Shown piece by piece: positions 23,771 through 59,758 of a stretch of DNA of 64,000 nt (position 1 is the first letter of the stretch; each line of letters opens with the position of its first letter). The stretch spans positions 3,360,001 through 3,424,000 of the forward strand of contig OY968796.1 of the NCBI GenBank assembly GCA_963695545.1, written 5' to 3'. The DNA comes from Terriglobia bacterium. Lineage in GTDB: Bacteria > Acidobacteriota > Terriglobia > Acidiferrales > UBA7541. The notes beneath the pieces were generated by a model that saw only the letters and a list, made by a program, of their open reading frames with translations, searched no databases and was not told the DNA's origin. The position numbers and the translations under genes were made by a program.

Positions 23771-24412
23771 TCAATCAAAGGAATAAGGCGACGTGCGGGA
23801 TGTACTGCGGCGTGTGGACGCCGATGCGTCCATGTCCAGCGAATCGGCGGCTTCGTTGTCGGAGGAATAGAGAGGGCGGCGCGTGGGTTTGCGCAGAGGA
23901 TATTCGCGGCCGCGCAGATTCGTCGCGGCGCATTGGCGGCAAACGGCTTTGCCGCATTTTTCGATTTCGGCTGCGCGGTCGCACATTCTGAAATAAAAAC
24001 ATGACGGCGGCGCGGCGCTCGGCGCGGTGCGCATGGCTTCAATCGACTGCGCGAGGCGCAATGCTTGAATCGTCTGCGCGGTGCCCGTCGCTTCAATTGG
24101 CTGCGCGCTGCGCAGTGCTTCGCCGCGCTGCGCGAAGCGCGTTGCTTCAATCGGCCGCGCGGTGCGCAATGCCTTAATTGACTGCGCGGAGCGCGCCGAT
24201 TTGCCGGACTGCGCGGAGCGCATTGCCTTAATCGTCTGCGCGGAACGCGTTGATCTGGTCGGATGGGATCGGCGGACGGCTTTGGGCGAGGGCTTCTTCT
24301 TGGCGGGAGGACGTCGCGGCGGGATTACGGTGGCGCGGCGTTTGAGCAGGCGGGCAATTCTCTTCTGGGCGGGGACGCTTCGCGGACTACGGCGGCGGGA
24401 TCGCGCGGGCAA
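23771..24412 (-). CDS. basic hypothetical protein with 9-aa repeats and Cys-rich segment
   Basis: 27-bp repeat (RSAQSIKAL-like, about 8 copies) then C..C..C..CxxC. Directly follows 24434..25225. Confidence 0.45.
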   Translation of the reverse strand: MPARSRRRSPRSVPAQKRIARLLKRRATVIPPRRPPAKKKPSPKAVRRSHPTRSTRSAQTIKAMRSAQSGKSARSAQSIKALRTARPIEATRFAQRGEALRSAQPIEATGTAQTIQALRLAQSIEAMRTAPSAAPPSCFYFRMCDRAAEIEKCGKAVCRQCAATNLRGREYPLRKPTRRPLYSSDNEAADSLDMDASASTRRSTSRTSPYSFD

Positions 24413-24433
24413 TTTGGAATTTCCGGGAATCTC

Positions 24434-25225
24434 TTAATGATGCGCGGCGACGGCGCCGACTACGGCCCCGGTGGCCGCGCCGATCGCGAACCATTTCGCG
24501 CCGCGGCGCAGGCGCGTCCAGAAGCTTCCGCCCTTCGCGCTTGTGACGGCGGCGTCGCGCTGTTGCGTGAGCGCGGTGACCTGCGTCTGCGCGTCGGCCA
24601 AATCTTTTTTCGCGGTGTCGCGGTCGAGCGTGGTCGCCTGGCAATTCTCGAAATAATCGTAGAGCGGCTGGAGATCGGCCTGCGGAATGTTCGCGACGAT
24701 CGGAGCGAGGTTGCTCGGGACTGCGGCGCTCGCGCTCGCGCCAGCGGCGCCCGCGCTGACGCCGGGCGCGGCGGGAAGGCTCGCGCCGTTTTGCGCCGCA
24801 GATTGGGCGTTAGCGGAATTGCTCGCCCTGGTATTCGCGCCGGCGCTCGCAGGCTGATTCCCTGCCCCGCCGGCCTGCGCGTTGGCCGAACTTGGCGCTG
24901 ACGGTGAAATCGTGATCGGTTGCGGCAGCGGCGGCAGCGCCGACGGCAGCGCGGCGAGCGCTTGCTGCGGCGTCTGAACTTTTTTCTCGAGCGCGGCGAT
25001 TTGCGCGAGCTGCGTCGCGAGTTGCGCGTCGCGCGCTTTTTCGCTGGCTGCGGCCGCGTCGAGATGTTTCTGCGATGCCGCGAGCGTGGCCGAAAGCGCC
25101 GCGGCGCTGCGATGCGCCGCAAACCACGCGTGCGCGATCAGCGCCGCAGCGATCAGCAGCGCGACAAGCGCGACCGCGCGCCAATGTTTCCAGGCGAGTT
25201 CGTCGAGTGAGAGGGGAATTGACAT
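24434..25225 (-). CDS. membrane-anchored coiled-coil protein, possible spanin-like lysis accessory
   Basis: N-terminal TM, coiled coil, Pro/Ala linker, second coil and C-terminal hydrophobic helix. Lies downstream of the endolysin. Confidence 0.6.
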   Translation of the reverse strand: MSIPLSLDELAWKHWRAVALVALLIAAALIAHAWFAAHRSAAALSATLAASQKHLDAAAASEKARDAQLATQLAQIAALEKKVQTPQQALAALPSALPPLPQPITISPSAPSSANAQAGGAGNQPASAGANTRASNSANAQSAAQNGASLPAAPGVSAGAAGASASAAVPSNLAPIVANIPQADLQPLYDYFENCQATTLDRDTAKKDLADAQTQVTALTQQRDAAVTSAKGGSFWTRLRRGAKWFAIGAATGAVVGAVAAHH

Positions 25226-25306
25226 ATAGGTCAGCGCATCTCGTCGCGCTAGACGGTCAGAATGCCCGCGGTAAGAGCGTGGAGATGGAGCATCGGCAAT
25301 TCAGAG

Positions 25307-25624
25307 TTAGGACTTTGTTGGTTTCTGAGTTGATCGCGATTGCGGGGAACTGGACTGTGATTCTACGGCGATGATTTTCTTGTTTTTCAGGATTTCGATG
25401 TAGTCATCGAGTGACACGTCACACCTGATCAGACCCGCCAATTGCTTCTCGTTGAGTTTCAGTTGCTGTCTGATCAGATTCCCGGGCTGTTCTTTATTTC
25501 CCTGTGAGCGTTTTGTGCGGACCACCGTCTGACCGCCATATTCAAACCAAGCGAGTCGGTCTCCGCTGTTACGTACCTTGAGTCCTAACTTGTTTACGAT
25601 TTTCTCAAATTCATGGACTTTCAT
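25307..25624 (-). CDS. HicA-like putative toxin
   Basis: Small basic alpha-beta-beta-beta-alpha pattern (FEKIVNKLGL..SGDRLAWF..IRQQLKL). The canonical HicA His is not evident. Confidence 0.5.
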   Translation of the reverse strand: MKVHEFEKIVNKLGLKVRNSGDRLAWFEYGGQTVVRTKRSQGNKEQPGNLIRQQLKLNEKQLAGLIRCDVSLDDYIEILKNKKIIAVESQSSSPQSRSTQKPTKS

Positions 25625-26045
25625 GGGGCCGCCGCACGACATGCTCTTTCAATACACCCCAGACTTTGGCTAAGTCCGGCCCGAGGCGCGGTTCCTCTGC
25701 CTCCAGTGAAACGTAGAGTTCAGCGATCGTATGTCCGAGATCATCGCAAGCCGAGGAATTCGACTTGCCGGTTCCAAATTCGTCCACCTGCCTCCACGAC
25801 GCGATAGCAGTGGCTCCGCGTCGGTCCAGATCGACGGGGATCGGCTTAATCACTCGAAACTCGCATCGACTGATCGTCCCGAGGAGGATCTGCTTCGGGC
25901 CGCGTTCCCGTCTGCGAATATGAACTTTAATTCTTTGGATAACGTCGTGAAGCACCACTGCCTGTGGGACATCGGGCGGTGGCACAAATTTGGGCGCAGG
26001 CTGCTCAAGATTTTGATTTACAAGGTATTGGGGCATAGCGGCCAT
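25611..26045 (-). CDS. HicB-like putative antitoxin
   Basis: C-terminal half FGTGKSNSSACDDLGHTIAELYVSL resembles the HicB G.T..EA..N fold. Overlaps the downstream gene by 14 nt. Confidence 0.5.
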   Translation of the reverse strand: MAAMPQYLVNQNLEQPAPKFVPPPDVPQAVVLHDVIQRIKVHIRRRERGPKQILLGTISRCEFRVIKPIPVDLDRRGATAIASWRQVDEFGTGKSNSSACDDLGHTIAELYVSLEAEEPRLGPDLAKVWGVLKEHVVRRPHESP

Positions 26046-26048
26046 ACT

Positions 26049-26480
26049 CTAGTTACCTCGTATCAGCCCTAGGGGCGGAATCTGAAGCTTGTCGGCCCTG
26101 ACGAGAGCCCGGCCGAGAAAGACGTCGTTTGCATACAGCTGGAACTCATAAGTCCCGAATTCGGCTATGGGGATGCCGGCGAAATTGAACGCCAATTCCA
26201 TCGGATCGTCTGGCTTGGCCCATTGCGCGTCCACCCTTATCTCCACGACAGGAGATTCGTCCCTGAGATTCACCAGTCGAACCCGAAGGTTGTACGTCCC
26301 AGAACCCTCAACCAATTTCGCATACAGGCCTAGGCTGTTTATCGGAAACGGAACGGCCGGAGACTGAACTCGATCAAAAACTCCCACAAGCGTTCGTTTT
26401 TGAGTCGCAGCGTCTTGTATCACCGTGTCGCAAACGATGATCGCCAAAACTGTCGGAATGGGGCTGGATTCAGCCATCAA
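26049..26480 (-). CDS. DUF6941-like beta-sandwich protein
   Basis: AIIVCD.VI.D..T.K.TLVGVFD, FGTYEFQLYAND. Confidence 0.65.
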   Translation of the reverse strand: MMAESSPIPTVLAIIVCDTVIQDAATQKRTLVGVFDRVQSPAVPFPINSLGLYAKLVEGSGTYNLRVRLVNLRDESPVVEIRVDAQWAKPDDPMELAFNFAGIPIAEFGTYEFQLYANDVFLGRALVRADKLQIPPLGLIRGN

Positions 26481-26665: not shown

Positions 26666-27109
26666 TCATTTGTAATGCGCGACGCGAGACAAAACCTCGG
26701 CGGGATAATCGCGATTGGCGCCGCCGTTCCAGGCGAGCAGGGCGCGCGTCGCGTCGCCGGCGGCGGCGTCGAATTTCGCGCGCAATTGGCGGCAGCCGAA
26801 TTCGAGGCCAGTGGCGGGATCGCAGAGTTCGGCGAGCGACGCGGCTTCGCAGCCGAGCTCGCGCGCCACCTGGCCCATCAGCTGCATCAGGCCCCAGGAG
26901 ATCGAGCGCGTGTAGGCCTCGGTGGCGGAAATTTTGCCGGCGTTGTAGAGCGGGGCGATGTAGCGCGCGAGAAAACCCGGCTCATAGCGCACGGCCCACG
27001 GATTCCAGGCCGATTCCTGTTCGACGACCGCGCAGACCAGCGGCGGATCGAGTTTGTGCGCGACCGCGGCAACGCGAGCGAGCGCGATGAGTGCGGGCGG
27101 TGCGGACAC
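26666..27109 (-). CDS. soluble lytic transglycosylase (SLT) endolysin
   Basis: AVVEQES.WN.WA, SWGLMQ and ALLAWNGG motifs. Confidence 0.9.
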   Translation of the reverse strand: MSAPPALIALARVAAVAHKLDPPLVCAVVEQESAWNPWAVRYEPGFLARYIAPLYNAGKISATEAYTRSISWGLMQLMGQVARELGCEAASLAELCDPATGLEFGCRQLRAKFDAAAGDATRALLAWNGGANRDYPAEVLSRVAHYK

Positions 27110-27286: not shown

Positions 27287-27332
27287 GATAACTTCCTACG
27301 CATATCCCTTTTTGCATAGGCCATGCAACCGC

Positions 27333-27404
27333 TGGACGCGACGGGGCTCGAACCCGCAACCCGACCTTGGCAAGGACGTGTGTTCCCAATTACACCACGC
27401 GCCC
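27333..27404 (-). tRNA. atypical tRNA, anticodon GCC (Gly) with alanine-type acceptor stem; CCA not encoded
   Basis: Hand-folded cloverleaf GGGCGCG TG GTGT AATTGGGA ACAC A CGTCC TTGCCAA GGTCG GGTT GCGGG TTCGAGC CCCGT CGCGTCC A. Confidence 0.85.
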
Positions 27405-27513
27405 ACGTGTACTACTAACATATCTATCCGTGTCTGACAACACATGGATCGATGGTCCAAGGCTGCGCCACCTGTGAATCGGACCAAAGCGGAAGTCAAA
27501 ACCGCGCACTGTG

Positions 27514-28479: not shown

Positions 28480-28550
28480 GTGAAGACACCTCCGTGGAAT
28501 GAATTCGAGATTTGAGTGGCGGCGCGCGTGATTCGCGCGATGTGTTTTTT

Positions 28551-28621
28551 GTAGCGGAGGCCTTTAGGCCTCCATCTGGGGCGTGCGTGGAAAAGGCTGG
28601 AGGCCTAAAGGCCTCCGCTAC
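28551..28621. repeat. REP family A inverted pair (GTAGCGGAGGCCTTTAGGCCTCC)
   Basis: GTAG-headed palindrome. Also at ~15516, 33817/33871, 34747/34796 (variant), 35575, 36259, 38235/38283, 44050/44121, 46215, 48770 and 49529. Confidence 0.9.
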
Positions 28622-28687
28622 ATAACCCGTGCTACAGAGCCGCGGCCGCGAGCCTCGGCGATGCGCGCTCCGCAAACGAAGCGTGCG

Positions 28688-29209
28688 TTACGAGTTTCCG
28701 CTGGTCGTGGTTTTGCCGAAGCCGGAGCCGCCGCTGCCGCCGCTGGCGGTGCCGCTGCCGGATGAAGCTTGCGGCGCGGGGCCGGCCGCGCCTCCGCCGA
28801 CAACCGGCGTGGCGGGCGAACCGAAGACGACCGCGGCCGATGGTTGCGAGCCGAGATATTGCGAATAGCCGCGCCAATATAATGTTTGGTTGCCGAGCGA
28901 AACGCGCAGATTGCGCGAGCTGCCCAGAAAATAAACGTGCGGCGCGGCGAAGCCGGGCGTGCTGTCCGACTCGACGAAATAATATATGCCCTTATTCACG
29001 GCGGAATTGTCGGTGATGGCCACGTCGAAAATTCCGTCGGCCGCGACCACGGAGATTCCGCCGATCGGCGCGGGCGCGGTGATGTCGCCCGAAGGATCCA
29101 CGCCCGTCGCGCGGCCGATCGAATTCACGGCGGAGATGACCTGCGTGATGGCTTCGTAGGTGTACGGCGATTCGCTTTTGATGCGCGCGAGTTGTGGGAC
29201 GGTGAGCAT
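28688..29209 (-). CDS. hypothetical phage structural protein
   Basis: In the morphogenesis operon, beta-rich with Gly/Ser tail. Confidence 0.65.
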   Translation of the reverse strand: MLTVPQLARIKSESPYTYEAITQVISAVNSIGRATGVDPSGDITAPAPIGGISVVAADGIFDVAITDNSAVNKGIYYFVESDSTPGFAAPHVYFLGSSRNLRVSLGNQTLYWRGYSQYLGSQPSAAVVFGSPATPVVGGGAAGPAPQASSGSGTASGGSGGSGFGKTTTSGNS

Positions 29210-29240
29210 TTGAATCGAATACGATTTTCGCGAACGTTTG

Positions 29241-30452
29241 TGTCGCCCCTACGGGGCTTAAAACAATTGGAGAAAATATAAAATGGACCGCGTACCCAGG
29301 GCTTACGCCCTGGGCTAAGCTCTGCCGCCCCTACGGGGCTGGTTTTCGTGCGGGCCGCGATTTCGTCACGTGGCGCGACCTCAGCATTGCGCGAAAAAAG
29401 ATGCCGCCCTAAAGGGCGGCGCTACAACGACAAAGTCTACGGCGCAATCACGCGACGTCAACCTTGCGGCAGAAGCAGGGCCAGGGATCGCGGCGCCAGC
29501 CCAGGCGCGCGAGGCGACGGCCGAAGGCGCGCGCGACGGGCGGCGGCAGAAACGCTTGTGCGTCGTCGAGGCCGCGGGCGGCGGCGGCGCGGCGCGTGGC
29601 TTCGTGCATCACCAGAAAACGCTGCCAGCGATCGCGCGGTGTGCCGGCACGCGGATCGTGAAGCAAATATGTTTCGGCGGTCAGGCGCAGGAGCACGCCC
29701 ATGGCCGGCTCGCCGGAATCGTCCTCGAGCACCAATTTTGAAATGAATAGCGGGCTCGTGAGATCGGGAAACGGATAGCCGAAGCCTTGCGCGGCGTGCA
29801 GGCGGCGCAGAGCGTCGAGATCGCGTTCCGTATATTCGCGGATCAACATCTGGGACGAAAGAAGGAAAATTCGACGGACCCGCGTGTGGGGCCGGTGCGA
29901 GGTGGCGCCGGGAGGTGGCGCTCGCCGCGCGATCACAAATCGCTTCGTGATGCAGCCCCGTAGGGGCGGCAGAGCTTAGCCCAGGGCGTAAGCCCTGGGT
30001 GGACAAATCCTCCACACGTTTTTCATCAAATGTTTTTCTTAAGCCCCGTAGGGGCGACACAGTCGTTGAATCAATTGCGGATATCGCGAGCGCTTGTGCC
30101 GCCCCTACGGGGCTAAGACAAAACATTTGGGAATAATCTAATTTGCGAATCGTTCCCAGGGCTTACGCCCTGGGCTAAGCTCTTTCGCCCCTACGGGGCT
30201 GGTTTTCGAGTGCGCGGCGATTTCGTCCCGTGGCGCGATTGTCGCGGGCACGGTTTGCGTAGCACAGCCATTCCTGGCTGTGCGATTTTGGGTTTTCTAC
30301 ACGCGGCGCAAAAAAGCAAAGGCGCACAGGCAGGAATGCCTGTGCTACGAAAAGACGATGGCGCGCCCCGCTACACGAGGCAGAACATTCAGCACGCCCG
30401 CGCGCGGCAAACACCGAGAGATCCCTCGTCGAGGACTCCTCGGGATGACGGC
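29241..30452. repeat. REP clusters flanking the GNAT-like gene (families A, B and others)
   Basis: Family B at 29241-29341, 29953-30061 and 30099-30202. GTAGCACAGCC/CTGTGCTAC pair at ~30258-30348. Confidence 0.8.
29448..29849 (-). CDS. GNAT-like phage protein
   Basis: MLIREYTERDL N-terminus and FGRRLARLGW C-terminus. Position after the nozzle gene as in many podoviruses. Confidence 0.6.
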   Translation of the reverse strand: MLIREYTERDLDALRRLHAAQGFGYPFPDLTSPLFISKLVLEDDSGEPAMGVLLRLTAETYLLHDPRAGTPRDRWQRFLVMHEATRRAAAARGLDDAQAFLPPPVARAFGRRLARLGWRRDPWPCFCRKVDVA

Positions 30453-30466
30453 GCTTGGTCGCGCCG

Positions 30467-33382
30467 TCAATTCACGCCGCGGACGATGGACCATGGGTCG
30501 GGCATCAGGCTGGGGATGAAGCGCTCCATCTCGAACCAGGAGCCGGCGGAATTTGTGCCGAACTGGAAGGCGACGCGCTCGGCGAGAACGTTGATCGGCA
30601 ATTCCAGATCGTGCGGCGAGTGCGAGGCGAGCGTTAGCGCGGGCAGCGACGCGGCGTAGGCTTCGCTATCGGCGAACGCGCTTAAATTCAACGTGCCGGT
30701 GCCTTGGGCGTAGAGCGTGAGATACGAAAACAATTTTCGGTGCGCGCGCACGTCGAATTGCTGCTCGAGGTCGTGGCTCAGAAAGAAAAATGTGGTGTAG
30801 TAGGCGTCGATCGCGGCGCCGTCGTCGGAATATTGCGTGTCGAGCATTTGATAGATTTTGCCGTTGCCCACGCCGTTGCCCAAAAACAATTGCGCGGTGC
30901 CGTTTGCGCGTTCGGCGAGCGTGGCGCAATTCGCCACGATGCTCCACGGGCACCAGCGGCGCGAGCGGCCGGCGGAAAACAATTTTCCGCTGATGGTAGA
31001 AAAGTGATACGGGCCGAGGCCGGCGATTTCGCTCGAAGAAAAGCAGCTGCGGTAATCGAGCATCAGCACGATCGAAGGCGTGGTCGCGGTGCCCAGCGGA
31101 ACGCCGCACAGAATGCGGCGATTGGTGGTGTCCACGCGGACCCACAGCGTGTTGCCCGCGGCCCAATTGATCTGGTCCCACAGCGGCTGAATTTCCTGCG
31201 AGATTTTCACCGGCTCGCCGCCATCATATATATAGAGGCCCTGGCGCGCGGCGATCACAGCCCAATCTTCGCCGATGTCCACGCCATTCACGGAGGGCGT
31301 GCCGACGGTGCGCGAAATTTCGGTCACGCTCCACGAAGCCGGCTCGCTGCCACTGGAATCCTGCGTGGAATAAAGTTCGTGGTCCTTCGCGAAATATAAA
31401 ATTCCGCGCAACTCGAACGCGGCGCGCACGGCTTGCCCATCGCCTTCCGCGATTTCGAGCAGGCCGGTGACGCCGTCGTAGCTTTCCGGGCTGCCGGCGG
31501 TCGAAGCGCGCACCACGCTGGTGTTGTACGGCTCGGCGGTGGGGAAAATCTCGATGTTGTCCACGCCGAATCCGCCGCCGACGCTCGGCGTGCCGTCGGC
31601 ATCAACGCGCAGCACGAGATCGGACGGAATGGTGGCGATCGCGGGCGTTAGCGGCGCGATAAATTCCTGCCACGCGGAGGTGGCTTGCGCGGCGGTGACT
31701 TCGATGCCGGTGGTGTTGATTCCGGCCGACGCGCTGTAAAGATGAATGTGCAGCGTGCCCTGCGTCGCAGGCGGCGAACCGACGGCGCGCACGCGCGCGC
31801 GCACGGAGTACGCGGTCTGCACGGCGATGCGCGTGACGCCGAGATAGTCCGCGACCGCGCTTTGCGTGATCAGGCCGCGCGTGGCGGTCGTGCCGTCGCC
31901 GAGAATATCGTACGCGCCGCCCCACACGCCGTTATCGCGCTGGCCGCCGGTGAAAAATGTGGCGTCGGGCGTCCAGCCGAGCGGCACGCCGCTGGTGGGA
32001 TCGAAGCCGCCATCGAACGAAAGATTTTGCCAGTTCGGCAGCTTGTTGCGCTCGCCCCACCAAAACATGCGGTCGGAATAGGCGATGCCGCCGGCGCATT
32101 CGCCGAGCTCGACGAGATTGAAAAGCGGATCGGCGAGCGTGCCGGCGAGCACATCGGAATCGGAAAAATCGACGAACCACGTGGTGGTGACCGTGTCGTT
32201 GATTTGCATCCGCGGCGAGCCTTCATCGCCGGTGGTGTAATAAAACGACGCGCCGCCGGACGCGGTGAACATCAAAACGCGCGCCACGATGTTCACGAGA
32301 TTCAGCGGCAGCGGAATTCCGGTGACTTGCGCGCGGCAATTTCCTATCGAGGTCCAGGAGATCGGCGGCGAGGGCTGCGTGATGTATCCCTGTCGCGTGA
32401 GGAACGCGACGGCCACTTGATGCGCGCCCGCGGCGATCGAGCCGAGCGGATTTGCGGTGCCCGCGTAGCCGGATTCGTTGGCGCCGGCTTGCGCGAAAGT
32501 GAATTGCGTGCCGCTGGTGATGGACGCCACGGCGAATGTGCCGTTCAAATCCGATGGCGCGCCGGCGGTGCCGCTGGCGCCGGCTTCGTCGGCGCCGATT
32601 TGCACCCAGGTGAAAATCGTGTTCGTGGAATCGACGGTGGCCACGGTGTACGAGCCATTGAAATCGGTGGTGCCGCCGGTGACGCCGGCGATCAGAATTT
32701 GCGCGCCGACGGCGATCATCAGCGCCGCGGCGGTGTTCGCCGTGACCACGTCGTCGGAGCGCTGAATCGTGGAAAGCGCGACGGGCGCGGCGACGGTGAC
32801 ATTGGAAATTACAATTTGATCGCTGCTATCGAGATTGTGCGGCGTGGCGGTGTTCACGGTGACCACGTTCGAGGTGCGCACGATGCTCGAAATATTCGCG
32901 ATCACATCCGCCACGGCCGCGGGCCCCGAGCCGGGACCGACTTGGCTGACGCGATCGAAATACGTGCCGTCATACTGGCGCGGCAGATCGAGGCCGAATT
33001 GGCCATCTCCGAACGCGAGATATTCGCGGCCGAACAATGTGGTGGACGCGGCGCGCGCGCCGGCCACGATGCCCGACGCAATTTCCGTGAGCACGCCGGG
33101 CGCGGAAGAAAATTCTCCCCAGAGCGTGCCGCTTGAATCGAGCGCGAGCAGCGTCTCCGCGAGATTTTGCTGAATGTACGTTTTGAGATAATTCACCGTG
33201 GGATTGCCGGCGATCGGCGTGTACACGGATTGCAGGCCGGGCCGCGTGCGGACGGCGCCGTTCAAGAACGCGACGTCCTGGCAATCCGGCGAGCAGCCGA
33301 ACGGGAGATCGGGCGCAGCCATGTCGGTGACCAGGCCGCCGAAAAGATCGAGAGGAACGTCGGTTGCGCCGGCGATGCTCAT
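30467..33382 (-). CDS. tail nozzle / DNA-stabilisation protein (P22 gp10 / tubular protein B-like), 971 aa
   Basis: FGGL.TD..P..SP.C.DV.F..G.V.TRPG N-terminus, propeller-like repeats (PVKISQEIQPLW), synteny downstream of the adaptor. Confidence 0.7.
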   Translation of the reverse strand: MSIAGATDVPLDLFGGLVTDMAAPDLPFGCSPDCQDVAFLNGAVRTRPGLQSVYTPIAGNPTVNYLKTYIQQNLAETLLALDSSGTLWGEFSSAPGVLTEIASGIVAGARAASTTLFGREYLAFGDGQFGLDLPRQYDGTYFDRVSQVGPGSGPAAVADVIANISSIVRTSNVVTVNTATPHNLDSSDQIVISNVTVAAPVALSTIQRSDDVVTANTAAALMIAVGAQILIAGVTGGTTDFNGSYTVATVDSTNTIFTWVQIGADEAGASGTAGAPSDLNGTFAVASITSGTQFTFAQAGANESGYAGTANPLGSIAAGAHQVAVAFLTRQGYITQPSPPISWTSIGNCRAQVTGIPLPLNLVNIVARVLMFTASGGASFYYTTGDEGSPRMQINDTVTTTWFVDFSDSDVLAGTLADPLFNLVELGECAGGIAYSDRMFWWGERNKLPNWQNLSFDGGFDPTSGVPLGWTPDATFFTGGQRDNGVWGGAYDILGDGTTATRGLITQSAVADYLGVTRIAVQTAYSVRARVRAVGSPPATQGTLHIHLYSASAGINTTGIEVTAAQATSAWQEFIAPLTPAIATIPSDLVLRVDADGTPSVGGGFGVDNIEIFPTAEPYNTSVVRASTAGSPESYDGVTGLLEIAEGDGQAVRAAFELRGILYFAKDHELYSTQDSSGSEPASWSVTEISRTVGTPSVNGVDIGEDWAVIAARQGLYIYDGGEPVKISQEIQPLWDQINWAAGNTLWVRVDTTNRRILCGVPLGTATTPSIVLMLDYRSCFSSSEIAGLGPYHFSTISGKLFSAGRSRRWCPWSIVANCATLAERANGTAQLFLGNGVGNGKIYQMLDTQYSDDGAAIDAYYTTFFFLSHDLEQQFDVRAHRKLFSYLTLYAQGTGTLNLSAFADSEAYAASLPALTLASHSPHDLELPINVLAERVAFQFGTNSAGSWFEMERFIPSLMPDPWSIVRGVN

Positions 33383-33412
33383 CGTGTTGGGTTCCTCTGC
33401 GCGATGCGCGGA

Positions 33413-33751
33413 TTACAGCAATTTGCGGAACGCGGCCTCGAACTGGATGTTGGCGTCGCCGGAGATGCGCGTGGGATACGTGCCGGCGGCGAGCTCGGTG
33501 GCGGACGCGGTGCTGATTTTCACTTTGCCGTTGTTGAGCGCGGTGCCGGGAATCCACGCGTAGAGATCGGCCGAGGTGCCGCCGGCCCAGAGCTGCGTGG
33601 GCGGGAGGCTCGCGCCGATTTGCGACGCGACGGTGGTGAAATCGAGCGTGTCGCCGCCGGTGGAATAGCTGCCCGACGGCGTGAGCTTGCCGAAAACGTA
33701 GATGTTGCCCGTGCCGGTGTCCACATCGGTGATGGTGATTGCGAGTGCCAT
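33413..33751 (-). CDS. hypothetical phage structural protein (possible capsid decoration)
   Basis: GAGGAG RBS, SYSTGGDTL and TELAAGTY motifs. Confidence 0.65.
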   Translation of the reverse strand: MALAITITDVDTGTGNIYVFGKLTPSGSYSTGGDTLDFTTVASQIGASLPPTQLWAGGTSADLYAWIPGTALNNGKVKISTASATELAAGTYPTRISGDANIQFEAAFRKLL

Positions 33752-33934
33752 GAGATCTCCTCTCGTTTCTCGTTGCGAAGATTGCGATGGTTGCGGCGAT
33801 GTGGTTTTTGAATTACGTAGCGGAGGCCTACAGGCCTCCAGCCTTTGCCGCACAAAATCAAAAGCCAGATGGAGGCCTAAAGGCCTCCGCTACAAAACCA
33901 TTTCGGTTCGCGCGTCCTTCTTCAATCGCGCGCG

Positions 33935-34660: not shown

Positions 34661-34845
34661 GATGTGCTCCTTCTATGCGCGCGTGGCGGAATCGATGGGT
34701 GTGCGGCGGAAATTCAAATGCCGAGCGAACGATCGAATTTGAATTTGTAGCGCCGGCCTTCAGGCCGGCATCGCGCTTACGGTGGAATTGAAAATGCCGG
34801 CCTAAAGGCCGGCGCTACATAAAACAAAACCGCGTGTGCGCGCGA

Positions 34846-35025: not shown

Positions 35026-35089
35026 GTTGTTCTCCTGTGATGCGGATTCCGAAATAAAATGTGTCGTGGCGCGCGGCGCTCGGCGCGCG

Positions 35090-36387: not shown

Positions 36388-36480
36388 GCGGCGATTCTCC
36401 TTGATTCTGACAGTGCCATCTTGAACCATTGGTTAACGCGGATATTGTCGAGCGTCGCGCCCGGTGCTACATTTGCGGCA

Positions 36481-49274: not shown

Positions 49275-49594
49275 GCGGATCTCCCTCGTCGAGAATTTCG
49301 GGCGCGAGCGCGTCGGAGTGTTCGGGTGGCACGAGCGGCGCGAAAGAAAAGATGTGTCGCCCCTACGGGGCTTAAAACAAATGGAGAAGAAATATTTTTG
49401 CTGCGCGTACCCAGGGCTTACGCCCTGGGCTAAGCTCTTTCGCCCCTACGGGGCTGGTTTTTCGGCGCCGTCGCGATTGCGCGGCGTGGCGTCAGATGTT
49501 GGTGCGGTTCGCACGTGAAAAGCAAGATGGAGGCCTGAAGGCCTCCGCTACATAAGGCAAAAGACAATTCGCGATCGCGCCGCGCGCCTCGCGG

Positions 49595-52500
49595 CTAATT
49601 CGGATTGCCGATTACGATGTAATCGAAGGCGTCGGAGGCGCCGGTGCAGGCGACGGCGAAGGCGCTTGCGGATTTCGCGCTCAGGCTGGCGCCGCCGTGC
49701 GTGGTTTCATCGAAAATTAAAATTACGGGCGTCGAGGAATAGGCGTTAGCGAACGTGATGGTCTTCGCGCCGGAGGCGCAGGCGGACGCGCCGGCAAAAT
49801 CGCTGTTCGCGGCGGACTGATTCATGTGACCGCCGTTCACGAAGCCAGACTGCGCGCGGATTTGTGCGGTGGCGTCGAGTTGATAGGACGGGCTCGCGGT
49901 GCCCAGGCCAGTGTTGCCTTCGAGAACATAATGATTGCCGGCGGCGGTGAAGCGCACAACCGACGCGTTCCCGGATTCTTCTCCGGGCGGCGGAAGCGCG
50001 CCTGTGGTGAGCGACGCGCCGGTATCCACGATTGGGAAACTTGCGCCCGCAACATATCCGTTGACGCCGGCGACGCCGCCGGTGCGGCCGTAGACTTTGT
50101 AGCTCGCGGCGCCGGCGCTCGCATTGCAACTGACCGAAACTTCGCCGTGTCCGCCGCCGCCGGAAATCGTGGCCGTCGCCGTTTGCGACCACCACGATTC
50201 GTACGGCGTCGAAGTCGTCGGCACATCGAGGCCGTTCAGAGCGGTCACGATGTACGTGTAGGTTCCATCGGCGAGAGAGCCGCCGCTGGTTGCCGGGGTT
50301 GCGGCGCAGCTCTGCGGACGTTGCAATCCAACATTCAGCGAGCCGCCTTGCTGTCCGACAATTGAGCCGGCGCTCACGTTGTCATCCGTCGCGGTGACGC
50401 GATTCGCGGCGAAGCCCGCGTTGCCCAGGCTCGTGGTGAATCCGCAGCTTTCGACGGTGCCCTGAAATGGCGCGCCATTGATCGGTCCGGGCAGAAAATT
50501 CCACGCGTCGATGCAGGGATTCGCGCCGTAGGGAGAAAGCACCGTGGATCCGACCCATCCCGCGAGCGCGGAAGGCGGCGTGGACGGATTCTGAATGGTG
50601 ACATTCTGGATCGGGTTGAGATAGCCGACGATGCCCACCATCGGAAGATTCGCGACGCTCGTGTCGTAAACTCCGCCGGAAATATTCAGCGCGTTGATCG
50701 CGAAGTTTTGCGAATCGAGATCGACGAGCGAAGTGAACAGAGTCTCCGCGGTGACATCGGTGAAATCGAAAGTGTTTGAATTTGGGCCGAGGCTCGAGGT
50801 TTCTCCCGAAATCTTTATGCCGCCGTATTCAAAGACGGTGCCGTTCACGAAAACCACGTCGGACGGCGTGCGCGATCCGTTCGCAAGCTCGAACCACACG
50901 GCATCGTCAATGCCGTTGCCCTGATATTTTCCGTGATCGAGCATGGTCCAGCAGCACGCGTCGCGCACTTTCAGCATCGGGCCGTATCCAGTGGTCGCGC
51001 CGAAGGCTTGAATGTTTTGCAAGGACTCGTTGCTTTGGCTATAGATTTCAATCGCGCTGCCGTTCGCGGAATATCCGCCGACGAAGAGATCCTGAAGTTT
51101 TCCCGCGCCGGCGCTGACGCCGGAGAAAAGCACGGGAAGCACGCCGGCGTCGGCCGAAAGCACGGCGGCCACTGGCCCATATCCGAATTGCGATTCGTCG
51201 TAGCCGCCGAGGCCGTGAATGCTCCAGCCCTGGCCGAGCGTGAGCGTGTTTGAGATGTTGAGCGCGCCGATCAGCCGGAAATCACAAGTGCCCGTCGTGG
51301 CCGGCAGATCGAGCGTGCCGTAGGCGTTGTAAAAACCGTTCGCCGCGGGCGCGTAGAGCACGCCGCCGGTCATTGTTCCGCCGCCGCGCGTGGTGGCGCA
51401 GGCCGAAGCCGCGGCGTTGATCGCGGCGGTGTCGTCGTGATAGATGGTCGCGCCGCTCGCGGCGGTTGTCGCGGATGCGCCGAGCGTGAGACTCGTGGTT
51501 CCGCCGCCGGACGCGATCGTGGCGAGCAGCCATTGCGGCGTGGCCGAAGACGGTGGAGCGGTGGGCACGTTCAGCGGCCAATACGCAACCGCGCCGACGC
51601 CGCGATCGACCCACTTGATCGGCTGCGCGATTGCGCCGGCGGTTTCCGTGGTGTTCGTGCCGCTCGATGTCCAGGTCAGCGTGAAAGACGGCGAAGGCGC
51701 GACGGCCGTGACCGTGAACGTGCCGTTGAAATTCGTCGTGCCGGAAACTGTGATTTGGCTGCCGACAATCGCGTAATTGCACGCGGTGCAAAATTGATTC
51801 ACGGACGCGGTGACCGACGAGCCGCCGGTGCGCGTGATGCTTGTGATGTTGTACGGCGGCGAGAGCTCGGCCGAGAACGTGCCCCACGCGGCGCCGTCTT
51901 TGTAAATCGCGTAGAACGCCGCGCCGGTGACCGGCGTGATCGCGCCCTGGATGAAATCCGTCGCGGTGAGCGTGGCCGGCGCGTTGGTCACCGTGAACGA
52001 CGTTGCCGCTGACGCCCCGCGCAGCGAATCGACGGCGACGACTTTGTAAGTGTGCGACGTCGAGCCGGTGGTTCCCTGCACCACGGCGGCGACTCCCGCC
52101 GGCGCGGCGAGCGAGCTCGCGGGGCCGGCGCCGGGGATCATCACGCCTTCACCGTTGGCAAAATCTTGCGCCGACGCGAGCGTTAGCGATGAAGAGCTCG
52201 CGGCGATTGTGCCGGTCGTCGTGGTGCTCGAACCGGACGCGCTCCACGCGGTGACGTCCCAGTAAGGAATCGGGCCTTTGAAAGAATTGTTGCCGGTCCA
52301 CGCGTTGTTCGCGCTGAGATTTCCTCCGCCACCGCCGCCGGTGATCGGATTTCCGTCAACGGTGAGCGTGCCGGCCACAGTCTCGTTTCCGCTAACGCCC
52401 AGATTTCCCGCGAGCGAAAGTGAAAACGCGGAGATGCCGCTGGTCGTGGTGACCGATGTGAACGTCGGCGACGATGGATCGCTCGGCAAAATCACATCGG

Positions 52501-52840
52501 GTAGCACGCGCGTGGTGATGCCGGGGCCGTAAATCTGAATCGTGTATTTTCCGGGCGCGGCGTAGAAAAAATAATTGCCCAGGCCGTCGGTGGAGACGGG
52601 ATTCGCAAGCGGCGTGGTGAGCGCGGAATTGGAATAGAGCGCGGCGAGCGGCGAGCACGGCGCGGTGGTGGTCGTCGCAGGCTCGGTGCAGATCGCAACG
52701 CTCGCGCCGGCCAGCGGCTGGCCGGTCGGGCCGAGCACGACGTCGTCGTGGCGCGAGCCTTGCGCGGCCGCCGTCGTCGCCATTGCCGCGCTCAACATCG
52801 CGCACAGCAGCACCAGTCCAATCAATTTCGGAAATCTCAA
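49595..52840 (-). CDS. tailspike-like protein (beta-helix) with N-terminal signal peptide, 1081 aa
   Basis: Head-binding-like NPVSTDGLGNYFFYAAPG.Y, pectate-lyase-3-like DDTAAINAA, leader MRFPKLIGLVLLCAMLSAAMATTAAA. Confidence 0.75.
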   Translation of the reverse strand: MRFPKLIGLVLLCAMLSAAMATTAAAQGSRHDDVVLGPTGQPLAGASVAICTEPATTTTAPCSPLAALYSNSALTTPLANPVSTDGLGNYFFYAAPGKYTIQIYGPGITTRVLPDVILPSDPSSPTFTSVTTTSGISAFSLSLAGNLGVSGNETVAGTLTVDGNPITGGGGGGNLSANNAWTGNNSFKGPIPYWDVTAWSASGSSTTTTGTIAASSSSLTLASAQDFANGEGVMIPGAGPASSLAAPAGVAAVVQGTTGSTSHTYKVVAVDSLRGASAATSFTVTNAPATLTATDFIQGAITPVTGAAFYAIYKDGAAWGTFSAELSPPYNITSITRTGGSSVTASVNQFCTACNYAIVGSQITVSGTTNFNGTFTVTAVAPSPSFTLTWTSSGTNTTETAGAIAQPIKWVDRGVGAVAYWPLNVPTAPPSSATPQWLLATIASGGGTTSLTLGASATTAASGATIYHDDTAAINAAASACATTRGGGTMTGGVLYAPAANGFYNAYGTLDLPATTGTCDFRLIGALNISNTLTLGQGWSIHGLGGYDESQFGYGPVAAVLSADAGVLPVLFSGVSAGAGKLQDLFVGGYSANGSAIEIYSQSNESLQNIQAFGATTGYGPMLKVRDACCWTMLDHGKYQGNGIDDAVWFELANGSRTPSDVVFVNGTVFEYGGIKISGETSSLGPNSNTFDFTDVTAETLFTSLVDLDSQNFAINALNISGGVYDTSVANLPMVGIVGYLNPIQNVTIQNPSTPPSALAGWVGSTVLSPYGANPCIDAWNFLPGPINGAPFQGTVESCGFTTSLGNAGFAANRVTATDDNVSAGSIVGQQGGSLNVGLQRPQSCAATPATSGGSLADGTYTYIVTALNGLDVPTTSTPYESWWSQTATATISGGGGHGEVSVSCNASAGAASYKVYGRTGGVAGVNGYVAGASFPIVDTGASLTTGALPPPGEESGNASVVRFTAAGNHYVLEGNTGLGTASPSYQLDATAQIRAQSGFVNGGHMNQSAANSDFAGASACASGAKTITFANAYSSTPVILIFDETTHGGASLSAKSASAFAVACTGASDAFDYIVIGNPN

Positions 52841-52904: not shown

Positions 52905-53276
52905 CTACGGCAACATTTTCGCGGTGAATGTGGAACCGCCGGTGGCGCTCGAGACGTTGATGCGCAGGAATTTCGCGCGCACGCCGGTCACGGTGCGCGC
53001 TTCGCCGGCGGTATTCGTGCTGGTGTCGAGCGTCGCGTATTCGGTGGCCACGTCGGCCATCGCGCCTTGCAATTGAATGTTTACGGCCGAGGGCGCGGTG
53101 GCGAAAATAGTTTGCCAGCGCACGGTGCGGTCGTCGCTGGCGAAGCCCGAAGGATTCGTGAGCGCGAATTGCGCGCCGGCGCTCGCCGATGTCGGCAGCG
53201 TCTCGCCGTTGAAGCTGTAGCCCACGTCGCCTGGAAAAAGCGAATACGGCGGCAGCGCATTGTTGTAAGCCGGCAT
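52905..53276 (-). CDS. small beta-rich protein, first gene of the morphogenesis operon
   Basis: GGAGGT RBS, paralogue of 48882..49274. Confidence 0.75.
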   Translation of the reverse strand: MPAYNNALPPYSLFPGDVGYSFNGETLPTSASAGAQFALTNPSGFASDDRTVRWQTIFATAPSAVNIQLQGAMADVATEYATLDTSTNTAGEARTVTGVRAKFLRINVSSATGGSTFTAKMLP

Positions 53277-53441
53277 CGGGACCTCCGTGTGCGATTTGTT
53301 GTGCTGCGCAATCCGGTTCGCAATCGCGCGTCGGCGCGTTCGAGCGCTGACGCGCATTTTTGCGCGCGCGTTCGCACTCGCGCGGTTCGCGATTCTGTCT
53401 GCTGCTTATGCTTCTTGCCCTGCGGCGGGAAAAATCAGTGC

Positions 53442-57346: not shown

Positions 57347-58396
57347 TCAGCGCCCGTTCGCAGCGCCCTTCGCCCGCGTCGGAGCCGCGTCGCGCGCGCC
57401 GTCGCCAGATTTCTTCGTCGGCGCATCGCCTGGCGCGCGCAGCGGCGGCAATTCCGGGCCGCGGCCGACGTTCAAATCGCGCGCGAGCTGCAGCGCCTTC
57501 GCGTCCTGCCGAGATTGCCACCACGCCGGCGGCGCGGGCGATGATCGTCCTTGATTCGCGGCCGAAGATCCGCCGACGAACGGCCGCGCCGTCGCTCGAT
57601 TCCCTGCCGCCGGCGACGTGCGGCTTGCCCAGGGATCGAGCGATCGCGCCGCCTGCGCAAATGCGCGCTCGGCGGTCCCGCGCACATCGCCGGTGAATGA
57701 ATCTCCCTGCGCGGGTTCGATGAAGTGTGCTTTGGCAGTTCGTTCTGCAGTTCTTTCCAGAGAGGGTTGAGGCAGTGGCAGTCGCCTTTGCGGATTTTTC
57801 TCCCGCCCCAAATCCAAATTCTGATTCCGATACAAATCCGAATCCTGTGGTTGAGCCGGCTCAATCCCCGCCTTGAGTTCGCTCAAGCCCGAGCTTGAGT
57901 GTCTGCAAGATCCCTGCGCGGTTTCCTGCCCGGCATTTTCTTCACGAAGTTGCACCGCGCGGTCCACCGATGATTGCGAAATTTGCGCCGCCTGCTGTTT
58001 CGCGCCGCGCGAAAATCGCGCCACGTACTCCGCCAGCTCTTTGCGCGGCACCGGCGGCGCCAATTTTTCGAGGCGCACCCGCCACGACGGCGCCGGCAAG
58101 CGTCCCGGCACATCGCTGCCGGTCCAATGACCGTAGCGCTTGCCACTCGATTCCCAACGGAACAACAATCCGCGCGCGCCAAATTCATCGAAGACCTGCT
58201 CGAGCCGCTCGATCGTGAAGTTGCGCCGAATCGCGGCCACGCGTCCCCAAATCACGCGCAGATTCGTGAGCTCGAAACTTCCCGACGCGTCGGCCAATCC
58301 GTAGAGCCACGCGTATTCCGCCTGCGCCCACTCCGCGCACGCCGCAAGTTTGTCGGATGACCACATCGCGTCGGCATCAATCACGCGCTTTGGCAC
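57347..58396 (-). CDS. phage replication-initiator-like protein (N-terminal winged helix, disordered C-terminus)
   Basis: GGAGGT RBS, MPKR.I....W.S.K....W....LAD..G pattern typical of replisome-organiser N-domains. Confidence 0.6.
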   Translation of the reverse strand: MPKRVIDADAMWSSDKLAACAEWAQAEYAWLYGLADASGSFELTNLRVIWGRVAAIRRNFTIERLEQVFDEFGARGLLFRWESSGKRYGHWTGSDVPGRLPAPSWRVRLEKLAPPVPRKELAEYVARFSRGAKQQAAQISQSSVDRAVQLREENAGQETAQGSCRHSSSGLSELKAGIEPAQPQDSDLYRNQNLDLGREKNPQRRLPLPQPSLERTAERTAKAHFIEPAQGDSFTGDVRGTAERAFAQAARSLDPWASRTSPAAGNRATARPFVGGSSAANQGRSSPAPPAWWQSRQDAKALQLARDLNVGRGPELPPLRAPGDAPTKKSGDGARDAAPTRAKGAANGR

Positions 58397-58635
58397 AACG
58401 CACCTCCCTGTTCACAATCGTTCACTTGTTTTTCCCGCGTGTTCAGATCGTGCACGTTCGGTGACATGTTCATGCGCGGTCCGACGCGATCGATTCGTGC
58501 ACATTCGATGACACGTTACATCGCGCGCGTAACGCGATCGCGCGCGCCGAGCATCGATCGCCGCGCCGCAAAAGTCCGCGCGCCCGAAATGGAACTCGCG
58601 TCGCAGCGCGATCACCGCCGATTTTTTGCCGCGCC

Positions 58636-59082
58636 TCACGCGCCCGACGCGATCCGGTATTCCCATTTTCCCGGTGGGCAGAGTTTTGTCCTCGCCGCGG
58701 TCTCTTCGCTGTCGCGGCGCCGCTTCGACACGCGGAATCCGCCGAACATCGGCTTGCGCAGATGCCGCAGTTGCGCCGAGATCGAGGCCTCGCCGTAGCC
58801 CGTGATTCGCGAGAGCTCTGTCAACGTCAACCAGGCGCCGCACTCCGCGGCTGACTGCATGACGTCGCGCACGAATTCCAGCTGCGTGCGCGTGCTCTCC
58901 CGATCGTAAAGCCGCCGCCAACTGGGATAACCGGCTATGCGTTGAATAACTTGCAGGCTGATGTGTTGCATGTCGCCCCCTTTTCGATACCCGACCGAAT
59001 ACGGCCGCATTGCGTCCGATAACGTTTCGTGATCCCACCGTACCGTAGCACTCTCGGCGCTTGCGTCCGCTAACGCCCGCAC
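58636..59082 (-). CDS. HTH DNA-binding protein (start may be 58972)
   Basis: WLTLTELSRITGYGEASISAQLRHLRK...WEYRI winged HTH. Confidence 0.7.
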   Translation of the reverse strand: MRALADASAESATVRWDHETLSDAMRPYSVGYRKGGDMQHISLQVIQRIAGYPSWRRLYDRESTRTQLEFVRDVMQSAAECGAWLTLTELSRITGYGEASISAQLRHLRKPMFGGFRVSKRRRDSEETAARTKLCPPGKWEYRIASGA

Positions 59083-59428
59083 TCATCTCCCATCGTCCAT
59101 TACTCCTTATTTTTCCTAACGTTCACAGTTCCCGCCCGCCCGCGCGAGCCCGCCGCTCCCCGCGTATTTTCCACATCCCTCTCGAATATCTCCGCGCCTC
59201 CGGGTCCCTCGCCGGTCTTCGGATGGTCGTCAGTTTTCGCTTCCCGATCGGGCGCAGTCGTGTCAGGATTCTGGTAGTCGCCGGCACACCCGCTGCAGGC
59301 GTCCAGGACGCGGCTCTCGCCCGGCCTAGTAGTACTAGATCGTATCTTGTAACCCCTGTAATAAATAACTGTACTTCTACTACACGCTTAAGTAATAATT
59401 GGTATACGCTCACAAGGAGCCTAGGCCC

Positions 59429-59758
59429 ATGTCTCTAAAGCCATTCGATCCTCCGTGGGAATATCTTCGGCAAGCTTCCGCGACCTCTCTCCAAAGCTTC
59501 GAACTCTCGCGCTTGAATCACGCCGCCAACCTTCGGCACGAAATCGCCGCGCTGATGGATCAATGGCTCGAGGAGACCTCCCAAGCTATGCTCGCGCGCT
59601 GGCTTCTCGAAAATCGCGACCATGCGCGCGATACCCACACCGTCGAGACCGACGCAGAGACTCCATTGCCCGATTCCCTTCCCCCTGCGGCGATTCCCAA
59701 ATTGGTCCGCAGCGTTCGCGGCAAATCGCACGTCGCTCACGGCGGCGCGCTGCGCTGA
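59429..59758 (+). CDS. small helical hypothetical protein divergent from the cluster
   Basis: AAGGAG RBS, preceded by an AT-rich intergenic region. Confidence 0.65.
   Translation: MSLKPFDPPWEYLRQASATSLQSFELSRLNHAANLRHEIAALMDQWLEETSQAMLARWLLENRDHARDTHTVETDAETPLPDSLPPAAIPKLVRSVRGKSHVAHGGALR

Follow-up and report, generated by a model that had tools for sequence, protein, structure and literature searches.

Among the described systems closest to the locus reported here are the gene transfer agents (GTAs). GTA particles carry largely random pieces of host DNA, as a rule shorter than the cluster that encodes them, to recipient cells, and their production in part of the population is under the control of host regulators. 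RcGTA, after which the RcGTA-type GTAs of the Alphaproteobacteria are named, has a long tail, and other GTAs are BaGTA of Bartonella, VSH-1 of Brachyspira, Dd1 of Desulfovibrio and VTA of Methanococcus. Acidobacteriota are among the most abundant soil bacteria, and gene exchange among them is little known. Here, we analyzed a gene cluster in a stretch of 64,000 nucleotides from the chromosome of an uncultured bacterium of this phylum (G000:C1:3360001-3424000; "the window" below means this whole stretch). The genome is a single contig of 4.16 Mb with a GC content of 60.6%. The cluster consists of co-directional minus-strand genes that extend from about 23.8 to about 59.8 kb of the window and include a phage-type late gene set. 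A first-pass annotation had described it as a domesticated podovirus-like cluster and a possible GTA.

Our analyses make it quite probable that this cluster is a phage-derived element that has become a resident, domesticated feature of the chromosome in one uncultured Acidobacteriota family, and that its intact copies are candidate GTAs. The element has diverged together with its hosts, is under purifying selection, has been lost repeatedly and contains no integrase. The copy in the window has recently been disabled: an insertion sequence (IS) of the IS3 family has taken the place of a scaffold-like gene, another gene contains a nonsense codon, and foreign DNA has been inserted.

Gene content and chromosomal locus

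Forty-six open reading frames (ORFs) of the window were scanned against PHROG and Pfam. Firm database support was obtained for four genes, encoding the terminase large subunit (TerL), the major capsid protein (MCP), an SLT lysozyme and a 971-aa virion protein, in agreement with the earlier description of 23771-59758 as phage-type late genes on the minus strand. As in known GTAs, these phage morphogenesis genes are chromosomally encoded; support for the portal is weak. The cluster is flanked by nadE and dsbA on one side and by fumC on the other. The core of the element, about 25 kb and undivided, has the order 150-aa gene, variable spike genes, TerL, probable portal, scaffold-like gene and MCP, followed by about ten structural genes, a holin-like gene, the SLT lysozyme and a membrane protein. 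When the window proteins were compared by tblastn with 13 relatives, using 26-60 kb around TerL in each, about 20 genes were found to be shared in conserved order.

The MCP gene is present in 198 of the 301 genomes of the family, in 142 of the 204 high-quality genomes and in 21 of the 29 genera. In nearly all cases it is found once and without an internal stop, its identity to the MCP of the window falls into genus-specific bands between 74 and 92%, and the element is single-copy in approximately two thirds of the family's species. TerL was found in 13 of 24 same-family genomes, in the single genome of a second family (f2, a sister family) and, weakly, in 1 of 15 genomes of a third family. A capsid profile searched against a sample of 401 genomes of the class matched 51 of 74 genomes of the family, the single genome of the second family and only 4 of 325 genomes in twelve other families. 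The MCP had no tblastn match in 50,697 GenBank phage records, and TerL is at most 31-33% identical to any record of this collection. In IMG/VR, the capsid gene occurs on at least 136 contigs that are listed as viral, and no flanking host genes were found in these loci within 10 kb on each side of the MCP gene.

Distant elements with the same gene order and capsid proteins 25-57% identical were observed as a second copy in G157 (L308-L309, G157:C137) and in G545 (L310-L311, G545:C158) and G493 (L312-L313, G493:C399), the latter two from two other families. They may be free or less reduced relatives of the element. No integrase was found in the parts of these contigs that were examined, and the contigs end early.

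In 62 genomes, which represent 15 genera, the MCP gene and nadE share a contig, with a median distance of 20.8 kb; 50 of these distances are within 30 kb, 58 are within 65 kb and four are larger. Genomes having the two genes on different contigs, which are fragmented assemblies, were excluded. In five relatives, the SLT end directly adjoins nadE and a dsbA-like gene, and in four, fumC is found at the other end; G016, which belongs to a different genus, has both the nadE/dsbA and the fumC flanks. In the third family (f3), which is a sister of the element's family and element-free, the distance between nadE and fumC is 0.25-5 kb in eight genomes. The element-free family member G011 has the arrangement nadE, dsbA, 1.2 kb spacer and fumC, without a remnant of the cluster genes. 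No tRNA gene or other usual target is present in any of the empty sites.

The cluster of the window contains a tRNA-Gly(GCC) gene (27331..27405, minus strand; ARAGORN; Rfam tRNA, 54 bits), which is window-specific. It was considered as an integration site and discarded, as the corresponding position, between the homologues of the SLT gene and the 81-aa gene, lacks a tRNA gene in every relative, and so do the empty sites. The sole tRNA gene in the clusters of relatives is a tRNA-Ser located elsewhere in a G015 locus. The tRNA-Gly gene aligns poorly with the host tRNA-Gly(GCC) gene at genome positions 2540024-2540097. It was probably imported, because it is strongly unlike the host copy and absent from the clusters of all relatives.

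The first-pass annotation had recognized no integrase, CI-like repressor, helicase/primase, recombinase or att repeats, and our searches bear this out. Among the 46 ORFs of the window, no integrase, repressor, helicase, primase or recombinase was detected except the rve transposase of the inserted IS3 element, and a six-frame search with hidden Markov models (HMMs) revealed no tyrosine or serine recombinase in the interval. Inside the nadE-fumC interval, PF00589 (tyrosine type) had no match in six of six genomes and PF00239 (serine type) none in five of five; a conserved PF00589 match 22-53 kb beyond nadE, outside the interval, has the size of XerC/D. The boundary zones, searched for att repeats, share no 12-mer. 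In three other genera, 107 ORFs of the cluster were scanned against Pfam and 70 of them also against PHROG, and no integrase, recombinase, replication protein or repressor was identified; of the mobility, replication and repressor-type families sought, only IS transposases were matched. Most small ORFs of the cluster match no family at all (relaxed Pfam scans of 23 of them gave chance-level matches only), and a 349-aa protein, described below, shows weak hints of a replisome organizer. The integrase and att repeats of a functional temperate prophage were not found, and the site of insertion is fixed and not variable.

Co-divergence with the host, purifying selection and loss

Trees of the host proteins RpoB and NadE and of the element proteins MCP, portal and TerL were constructed for the same 15 genomes. 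Both trees contain the genus clade with its two subclades, a five-genus clade and a larger sister clade, and they share all well-supported clades except for the position of G020, whose element branch is very long. Identities to the window of RpoB and MCP are correlated (Spearman rho 0.90, n = 13), a value that is descriptive only as the genomes are kin. The element branches are about three times as long as the host branches.

Ratios of nonsynonymous to synonymous substitution rates (dN/dS) were calculated pairwise by the NG86 method for pairs with dS values of 0.05-1.2. The median was 0.14 for MCP (1709 pairs), 0.16 for TerL (218 pairs), 0.15 for the portal (228 pairs) and 0.31 for the scaffold-like gene (108 pairs). 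Intactness was scored in 80 loci from named genomes, counting the cases that could be judged. Intact copies were found for MCP in 68 of 72, for TerL in 48 of 54, for the portal in 48 of 62 and for the scaffold-like gene in 44 of 70 cases; many of the failures of the latter reflect low coverage only. Breaks over several frames are concentrated in long-read assemblies.

The first-pass annotation had proposed long-term vertical residence and had named synteny, phylogeny and dN/dS across relatives as ways to check it. This proposal is borne out on each count: the MCP gene lies at most 65 kb from nadE in 58 of the 62 genomes, which represent 15 genera, the element and host trees match except for the one long branch of G020, and dN/dS is 0.14-0.16 for MCP, TerL and the portal. 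It had also stated that variable loci with integrases in relatives would speak against domestication; the locus is fixed, and no recombinase is present in the interval in any of the six (tyrosine type) and five (serine type) genomes searched. Vertical inheritance at a conserved locus under purifying selection is as expected for a GTA, with one conflicting branch and at least six losses.

The composition of the cluster had been called host-like, which is roughly correct and does not hold in detail. Without its insertions, the cluster has a GC content of 63.0%, compared with 60.6 +/- 1.4% for 159 genome windows of 26 kb (98th percentile), and its tetranucleotide distance is at the 97.5th percentile of genome windows. 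The GC excess is in codon positions 2 (0.542 versus 0.469) and 3 (0.768 versus 0.723).

The copy in the window: genes, host repeats and damage

The features described here lie on the minus strand unless stated otherwise, and counts of relatives refer to the 13 genomes mentioned above. The TerL gene (44171..45748) matches phrog_979 (E 4.6e-41) and the Pfam families Terminase_6N and Terminase_6C. Between it and the probable portal gene (41440..43720) is a conserved 97-aa gene (43733..44026; matches in 11/13 relatives). The listed portal ORF, 41624-43720, stops early at 41624 and has no family match at E 1e-3. The ORF between TerL and MCP is probably the portal, and P22-like, because Pfam P22_portal weakly matches two of nine portal homologues (best E 0.0036), one homologue neighbours P22-like portal clusters in the ESM Atlas (0.94-0.95), and its position fits. 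The portal homologues contain an invariant, zinc-ribbon-like insertion with four cysteines at about residues 257-301 of the first aligned sequence, and besides this a separate conserved Zn-ribbon protein is encoded downstream of MCP (35635..36429; 264 aa; Pfam Zn_ribbon_3, E 4.5e-4; matches in 11/13 relatives). Zinc ribbons are not known as a usual feature of portal proteins.

The MCP (38414..39685; 423 aa) matches phrog_14242 (E 1e-6). The gene downstream of it (37604..38395) has matches in 11/13 relatives, where it encodes 194-278 aa, and its actual start is probably below the REP pair at 38231-38306 (these repeats are described below). Further downstream are a conserved 241-aa structural gene with an in-frame TAA (33935..34660), a conserved 146-aa gene (33413..33853; matches in 10/13 relatives) and the gene of the 971-aa virion structural protein (30467..33382; phrog_3287, E 4.4e-4), which is kept in 11/13 relatives. 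The counterparts of the latter protein in relatives match phrog_5838 (E 4.9e-7), and an AlphaFold2 (AF2) model of this ~900-aa family is all-beta at low confidence (pLDDT 46), so that the protein is a candidate nozzle or tail hub. Four conserved small genes follow (27514-27759, 27925-28479, 28688-29209 and 29448-29936), which match no family and keep their order in 8-10 of the 13 relatives. The protein encoded at 27514-27759 (81 aa) has one hydrophobic segment in a hydropathy scan and is a holin-like candidate.

The SLT-type lytic transglycosylase (26666..27109; Pfam SLT, E 2.3e-13; phrog_669 endolysin, E 4.6e-8) is kept in 7/13 relatives and may be either an endolysin or a virion-borne wall hydrolase. 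Beyond small ORFs at 25307..26480 is a conserved 263-aa protein (24434..25225), which matches no family; according to a hydropathy scan, it has an N-terminal hydrophobic segment, and its middle part is rich in Ala and Gln. Its gene is present in 8/13 relatives and adjoins dsbA/nadE in five of those eight, and we take the protein as a candidate lysis accessory protein. The left-end ORF (23771..24412) encodes a basic protein of 213 aa with 27-nt (9-aa) tandem repeats (repeat family D1). It has no PHROG or Pfam family match and is partly conserved, as tblastn covers 26-31% of the query in 3/13 relatives.

Upstream of TerL are two large variable proteins of 876 and 1081 aa (46702..52840), candidates for tail fibres or spikes. 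Where the first one starts is uncertain, as a REP at 48752-48796 is located inside the listed ORF, and of the second only the N-terminus is conserved (10-27% coverage in 11/13 relatives). Spike-like beta-helix proteins are present at this position in relatives, with Beta_helix or pectate-lyase domains and matches to the tail spike family phrog_7458. The odd gene order noted earlier, with spikes before the terminase, is therefore real: the relatives have the same order, and it is a trait of the family to have spike genes upstream of TerL. An inversion between the inverted IS3 copies was considered as the cause of this order and was rejected on the same ground. In this genus only, an additional block (49595-52840, 46702-49332 and 45755-46153) has moved upstream of TerL; in other genera, its usual place is after the Zn-ribbon gene. 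The block includes a 132-aa protein with two hydrophobic segments in a hydropathy scan, another holin-like candidate (45755..46153), whose gene occupies this position in this genus only and is placed elsewhere in other genera. The upstream end of the core is formed by a conserved 150-aa gene (52905..53357; matches in 12/13 relatives).

Beyond the core is a less conserved "early" end (56856-57245, 57347-58396, 58412-59086 and 59399-59758, the last on the plus strand), found mainly in one clade (5-8 of 13 relatives). The 349-aa protein encoded at 57347-58396 has no Pfam match and matches phrog_1408 weakly (E 2.9e-4); its named neighbours in the ESM Atlas are DnaD/DnaT-like (0.87-0.88), and it occurs in one clade only. 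It is possibly a remnant of a replisome organizer.

As to the type of particle, neither tape measure nor tail tube nor sheath families were matched in PHROG and Pfam scans of the window and three other genera. Profile searches of the PDB with alignments of the MCP, the portal, the 900-aa and the 241-aa proteins gave nothing meaningful, and structure models of the portal-like protein (pLDDT 42) and the 900-aa protein are too poor for fold comparison. A short-tailed, P22-like ancestry is our best guess.

Dispersed host repeats, namely repetitive extragenic palindromic (REP) hairpins preceded by GTAG, often as inverted pairs, and copies of Acido-Lenti-1, occupy intergenic gaps at 28547..49576. 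The REP hairpin, GGAGGCC-N4-GGCCTCC with GTAG before it, has 44 exact copies in the genome. Eleven of these lie between 28.5 and 49.6 kb of the window, or in about 21 kb of cluster, which confirms the earlier remark on REPs in intergenic gaps and is far above chance. Allowing up to two substitutions, there are 71 copies in the genome and 14 in the cluster, an enrichment of about 40-fold. A Y1 (IS200-like) transposase ORF of 180 aa at genome positions 1387492-1387803 has REP copies at 1387365 and 1387935. A Y1 transposase gene flanked by REPs is the classic arrangement of REPs and their associated transposase (RAYT), and together with the GTAG-led, dispersed intergenic hairpins it has the form of a REP/RAYT system; this transposase is the probable RAYT of the REP family in the cluster. 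G016 has its own GTAG hairpin, with 15 to 20 copies in its 37-kb cluster versus 398 in 6.7 Mb (about 9-fold), and G020 has another, with 5 of about 35 sites in 18 kb (about 36-fold). Thus, REPs are enriched in the cluster in all three genomes checked genome-wide, which represent three genera with different REP sequences. This concentration fits long residence. It was also observed that the G016 cluster contains an IS200-like Y1_Tnp gene (L012:11759-12316) between TerL and the next gene, amid REPs.

Rfam RF01687 (Acido-Lenti-1) has six matches in the window (59.8-60.9 bits versus a cut-off of 37), at 7265-7310 and, within the cluster, at 29295-29340, 29954-29999, 30155-30200, 35461-35506 and 49410-49455. 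The genome has 27 matches, of which 22 are above the cut-off, five of them in the cluster. This "sRNA" motif acts here as a dispersed repeat and is often found no more than ~200 nt from a REP hairpin, as though the two belonged to a single composite mobile element.

The damage to the window's copy concerns several sites. In all ten relatives that cover the region, portal and capsid are separated by a scaffold-like gene of 335-461 aa, and relatives whose capsid proteins are 94-95% identical still possess it. A tblastn search of the G000 genome gave no match to this gene, and blastn revealed no remnant. An IS3-family element (40008..41259; orfA 40914-41225, orfB 40048-40890; Pfam rve and HTH_Tnp_1) stands where this gene belongs, and a short-read contig bridges the junction. 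A second copy at 8930-10181, 30 kb away and inverted, is 100% identical, which suggests recent transposition. Matching target duplications were not seen at either copy. In the 241-aa gene, the window has TAA at 34358-34360 where G016 has GCG, and the gene is intact in the close relative L217. A short-read contig from a public soil run spans 32606-34690 without differences, which confirms the TAA. The earlier description of the gene set as near-complete is therefore wrong for the window's copy, which lacks the scaffold-like gene and carries an in-frame stop codon in the 241-aa gene. The strain that carries this copy probably makes no particles, to judge from these lesions.

A frameshift in the portal gene, indicated by a change of frame in the tblastn alignment with G004, was examined as a further lesion and rejected: the assembly lacks one base in a T-run behind 41694, the contigs of all four public runs contain the extra base, and the portal is intact. 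These four short-read runs are from one study and may include the source sample, so that they serve as a check of the assembly and not as independent populations. Other single-base frameshifts in G000 and similar long-read genomes may also be errors.

Insertions without counterpart in the relatives are the IS3 element at 40008-41259, the segments 53519-56815 and 25307-26480, and the tRNA-Gly gene at 27331-27405. The segment 53519-56815 contains inserted host-type genes, a DUF885 gene on the plus strand (53519-55552; Pfam DUF885, E 1.7e-63) and a 352-aa ORF on the minus strand (55757-56815). They are matched in 0/13 relatives, and in G004 the flanking genes are adjacent. The small ORFs at 25307..26480 are likewise window-specific (tblastn match in 0/13 relatives) and include that of a DUF6941 protein (26049-26480; Pfam, E 2.7e-16).

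Outside the cluster, a 9-kb block between dsbA and the cluster (14565-23704) is missing in relatives and is a later insertion. It contains two LysR genes (16329-16913 and 23108-23695) sharing ~78% identical DNA, a 1335-aa TonB-dependent receptor and a TacA-type antitoxin (17491-17856) beside a 173-aa ORF. Tandem arrays follow dsbA, with a C-rich 60-nt unit repeated four times (13499-13773) and a 67-nt unit repeated three times (14323-14523). Beside the right end of the cluster, an ORF region at 59825-60724 has internal repeats of 114 and 78 nt and no family match.

Possible functions and comparison with known systems

The distribution of the element, its fixed locus, the empty sites in sister lineages, the matching trees and the dN/dS values all argue for one old insertion followed by vertical descent and repeated loss. 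In our proposal, the family's ancestor would have acquired a short-tailed temperate phage in a single insertion; the phage would then have lost its autonomy genes and been kept for a benefit to the host. The retained activity would involve DNA-filled particles released by lysis, because terminase, portal and capsid are all conserved. Since these best-conserved parts probably imply DNA-filled particles, gene transfer is the leading guess for the function of intact copies, although our confidence in it is somewhat less than even. About as tentatively, the intact relatives may constitute a sixth independent GTA lineage and the first in the Acidobacteriota, derived from an unknown short-tailed phage and present in hundreds of uncultured soil and peat species, with a late operon colonized, and perhaps partitioned or regulated, by host REP/REPIN hairpins.

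Several observations weigh against this domestication scenario. About one third of the species of the family lack the element, and its presence and absence on a host tree of 34 genomes requires at least seven changes (one gain and at least six losses); selection to keep it is therefore weak or conditional. The element data reject a host-like placement of G020 (-9.1 log-likelihood units, approximately unbiased (AU) test p = 0.026), in a test for which the group was chosen after the tree was seen and which involves long branches; this conflict is possibly due to horizontal replacement or to a long-branch artefact. In addition, the cluster is a compositional outlier in its GC content, the identity of the portal and the tail type rest on weak evidence, and a possible remnant of a replication initiator survives in one clade. 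Within the same genus, G004 lacks the stretch from MCP to the 971-aa gene, with no capsid match and with the SLT-end genes directly after the portal, and TerL of G001 is read in two frames, which may be a long-read error. Finally, no small terminase subunit (TerS) was recognized in the window. The distant elements in G157, G545 and G493 do have a TerS gene directly upstream of TerL, of the Sf6 type or Terminase_2, the one in G157 being of the Sf6 type (E 1.3e-35). tblastn with two of these TerS proteins found nothing in the genome of the window, and matched, at E 0.002-0.007 only, a basic ORF of 141-201 aa in one clade. The 150-aa gene at 52905..53357 was considered as a candidate TerS and rejected (hhalign probability of 0.2 against Sf6-type TerS, and nothing in Pfam).

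A domesticated and vertically inherited element could also have been kept for another purpose, for instance as a killer particle, as protection against phages or for programmed lysis with release of cell contents. The evidence for vertical descent and purifying selection fits such a purpose equally well, hypervariable spike genes are what is expected for particles that target varying cell surfaces, and frequent loss suits a conditional benefit. Known killer particles (tailocins), however, have discarded capsid, portal and terminase, whereas precisely these are the best-conserved parts here, which points to a need for DNA packaging; we regard such a purpose as rather unlikely.

It is improbable that the element is a still active temperate phage lineage that co-speciates with its hosts and integrates repeatedly between dsbA and fumC with an unrecognized or host recombinase. 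Clean empty sites and the third of species without the element would agree with repeated integration, as would the listing of 136 IMG/VR contigs as viral, the one conflict between the trees, a composition somewhat unlike that of the host and the more distant syntenic relatives in other families. Yet none of six genomes contains an integrase, excisionase, repressor or att repeat, the empty sites lack a tRNA or usual target, and host REPs, IS elements and host genes are found inside the cluster in several genera. Moreover, levels of sequence identity strictly follow the host genus, genomes very rarely contain more than one copy of the element, and the GenBank phage collection contains no relative of the capsid. 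A neutral, slowly decaying prophage remnant without a function anywhere in the family would account for the damage in the window and in some same-genus copies and for the frameshifts at some long-read assembly loci. It is very hard to reconcile with about 20 intact and syntenic genes across at least 15 genera whose RpoB proteins are only 86-90% identical, or with a dN/dS of ~0.15; besides, one of the apparent frameshifts was traced to the assembly, and breaks occur mostly in genomes assembled from long reads. We therefore consider it highly improbable.

If domestication as a GTA is correct, the particle system, shared by some two thirds of the species in one family, would offer genes a candidate route through soil and peat and add a new phylum to the cases of virus domestication. 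For this family, the counts in soil viromes and the links between viruses and hosts are possibly inflated, because at least 136 capsid contigs are listed as viral in IMG/VR while the genomes show chromosomal host loci. The concentration of REPs in the operon in three genera is unexplained and testable. It resembles REP/REPIN-RAYT systems in its GTAG-led hairpins, its inverted pairs and the Y1 transposase gene flanked by two copies, and differs from them in being concentrated 9- to 40-fold within one phage-derived operon in three genera. No described parallel for such a concentration is known to us, although no search for one was made.

Judged by titles and the opening parts of abstracts, no paper found in full-text searches on GTAs in Acidobacteria/Acidobacteriota, on GTAs and domesticated podoviruses or on Acidoferrales describes such an element, and none of those found for GTAs reports BaGTA, VSH-1, Dd1 or VTA from Acidobacteriota. 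Prophage clusters have been described in Acidobacteriaceae, which are different taxa, with no proposal of domestication (Eichorst et al. 2018, PMC5900883).

P22/Sf6-like phages share with the element a P22_portal signal (weak, in two of nine homologues), P22-like neighbours in the ESM Atlas, beta-helix spikes and the order terminase, portal, scaffold and capsid, and the sister element in G157 has an Sf6-type TerS. Here, unlike in these phages, there is no integrase, immunity or replication module and no recognizable TerS in the window, TerL is 31-33% identical to that of any GenBank phage, and the spikes are upstream of TerL. Domesticated defective prophages of enterobacteria were reportedly described in 2014 by Bobay, Touchon and Rocha as vertically inherited and under purifying selection. 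The present element is similarly a vertically inherited remnant under purifying selection, and differs in being a near-whole morphogenesis module at a single locus in a family-level clade rather than scattered fragments.

BaGTA, VSH-1, Dd1 and VTA are independent domestications of tailed phages that keep morphogenesis and lysis genes, as would be the case here; their hosts belong to other phyla, and no homology to the present element was seen. BaGTA adjoins a phage-derived origin, which the possible replication-initiator remnant beside the cluster recalls. The likeness to the RcGTA-type GTAs of Alphaproteobacteria is more extensive: an integrase-free head/tail/lysis cluster with a constant position in the chromosome, vertical inheritance across a large clade with purifying selection and occasional loss, and a raised GC content. 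There is no sequence relationship between the two, and the capsid has no match among GenBank phages or in PDB profile searches. A particle of the present element would likely have a short tail with beta-helix spikes, unlike the long-tailed RcGTA. The parallel in GC content is partial, as the excess is in codon positions 2 and 3 here, and is reported for positions 1 and 2 in RcGTA-type clusters (PMC7360931).

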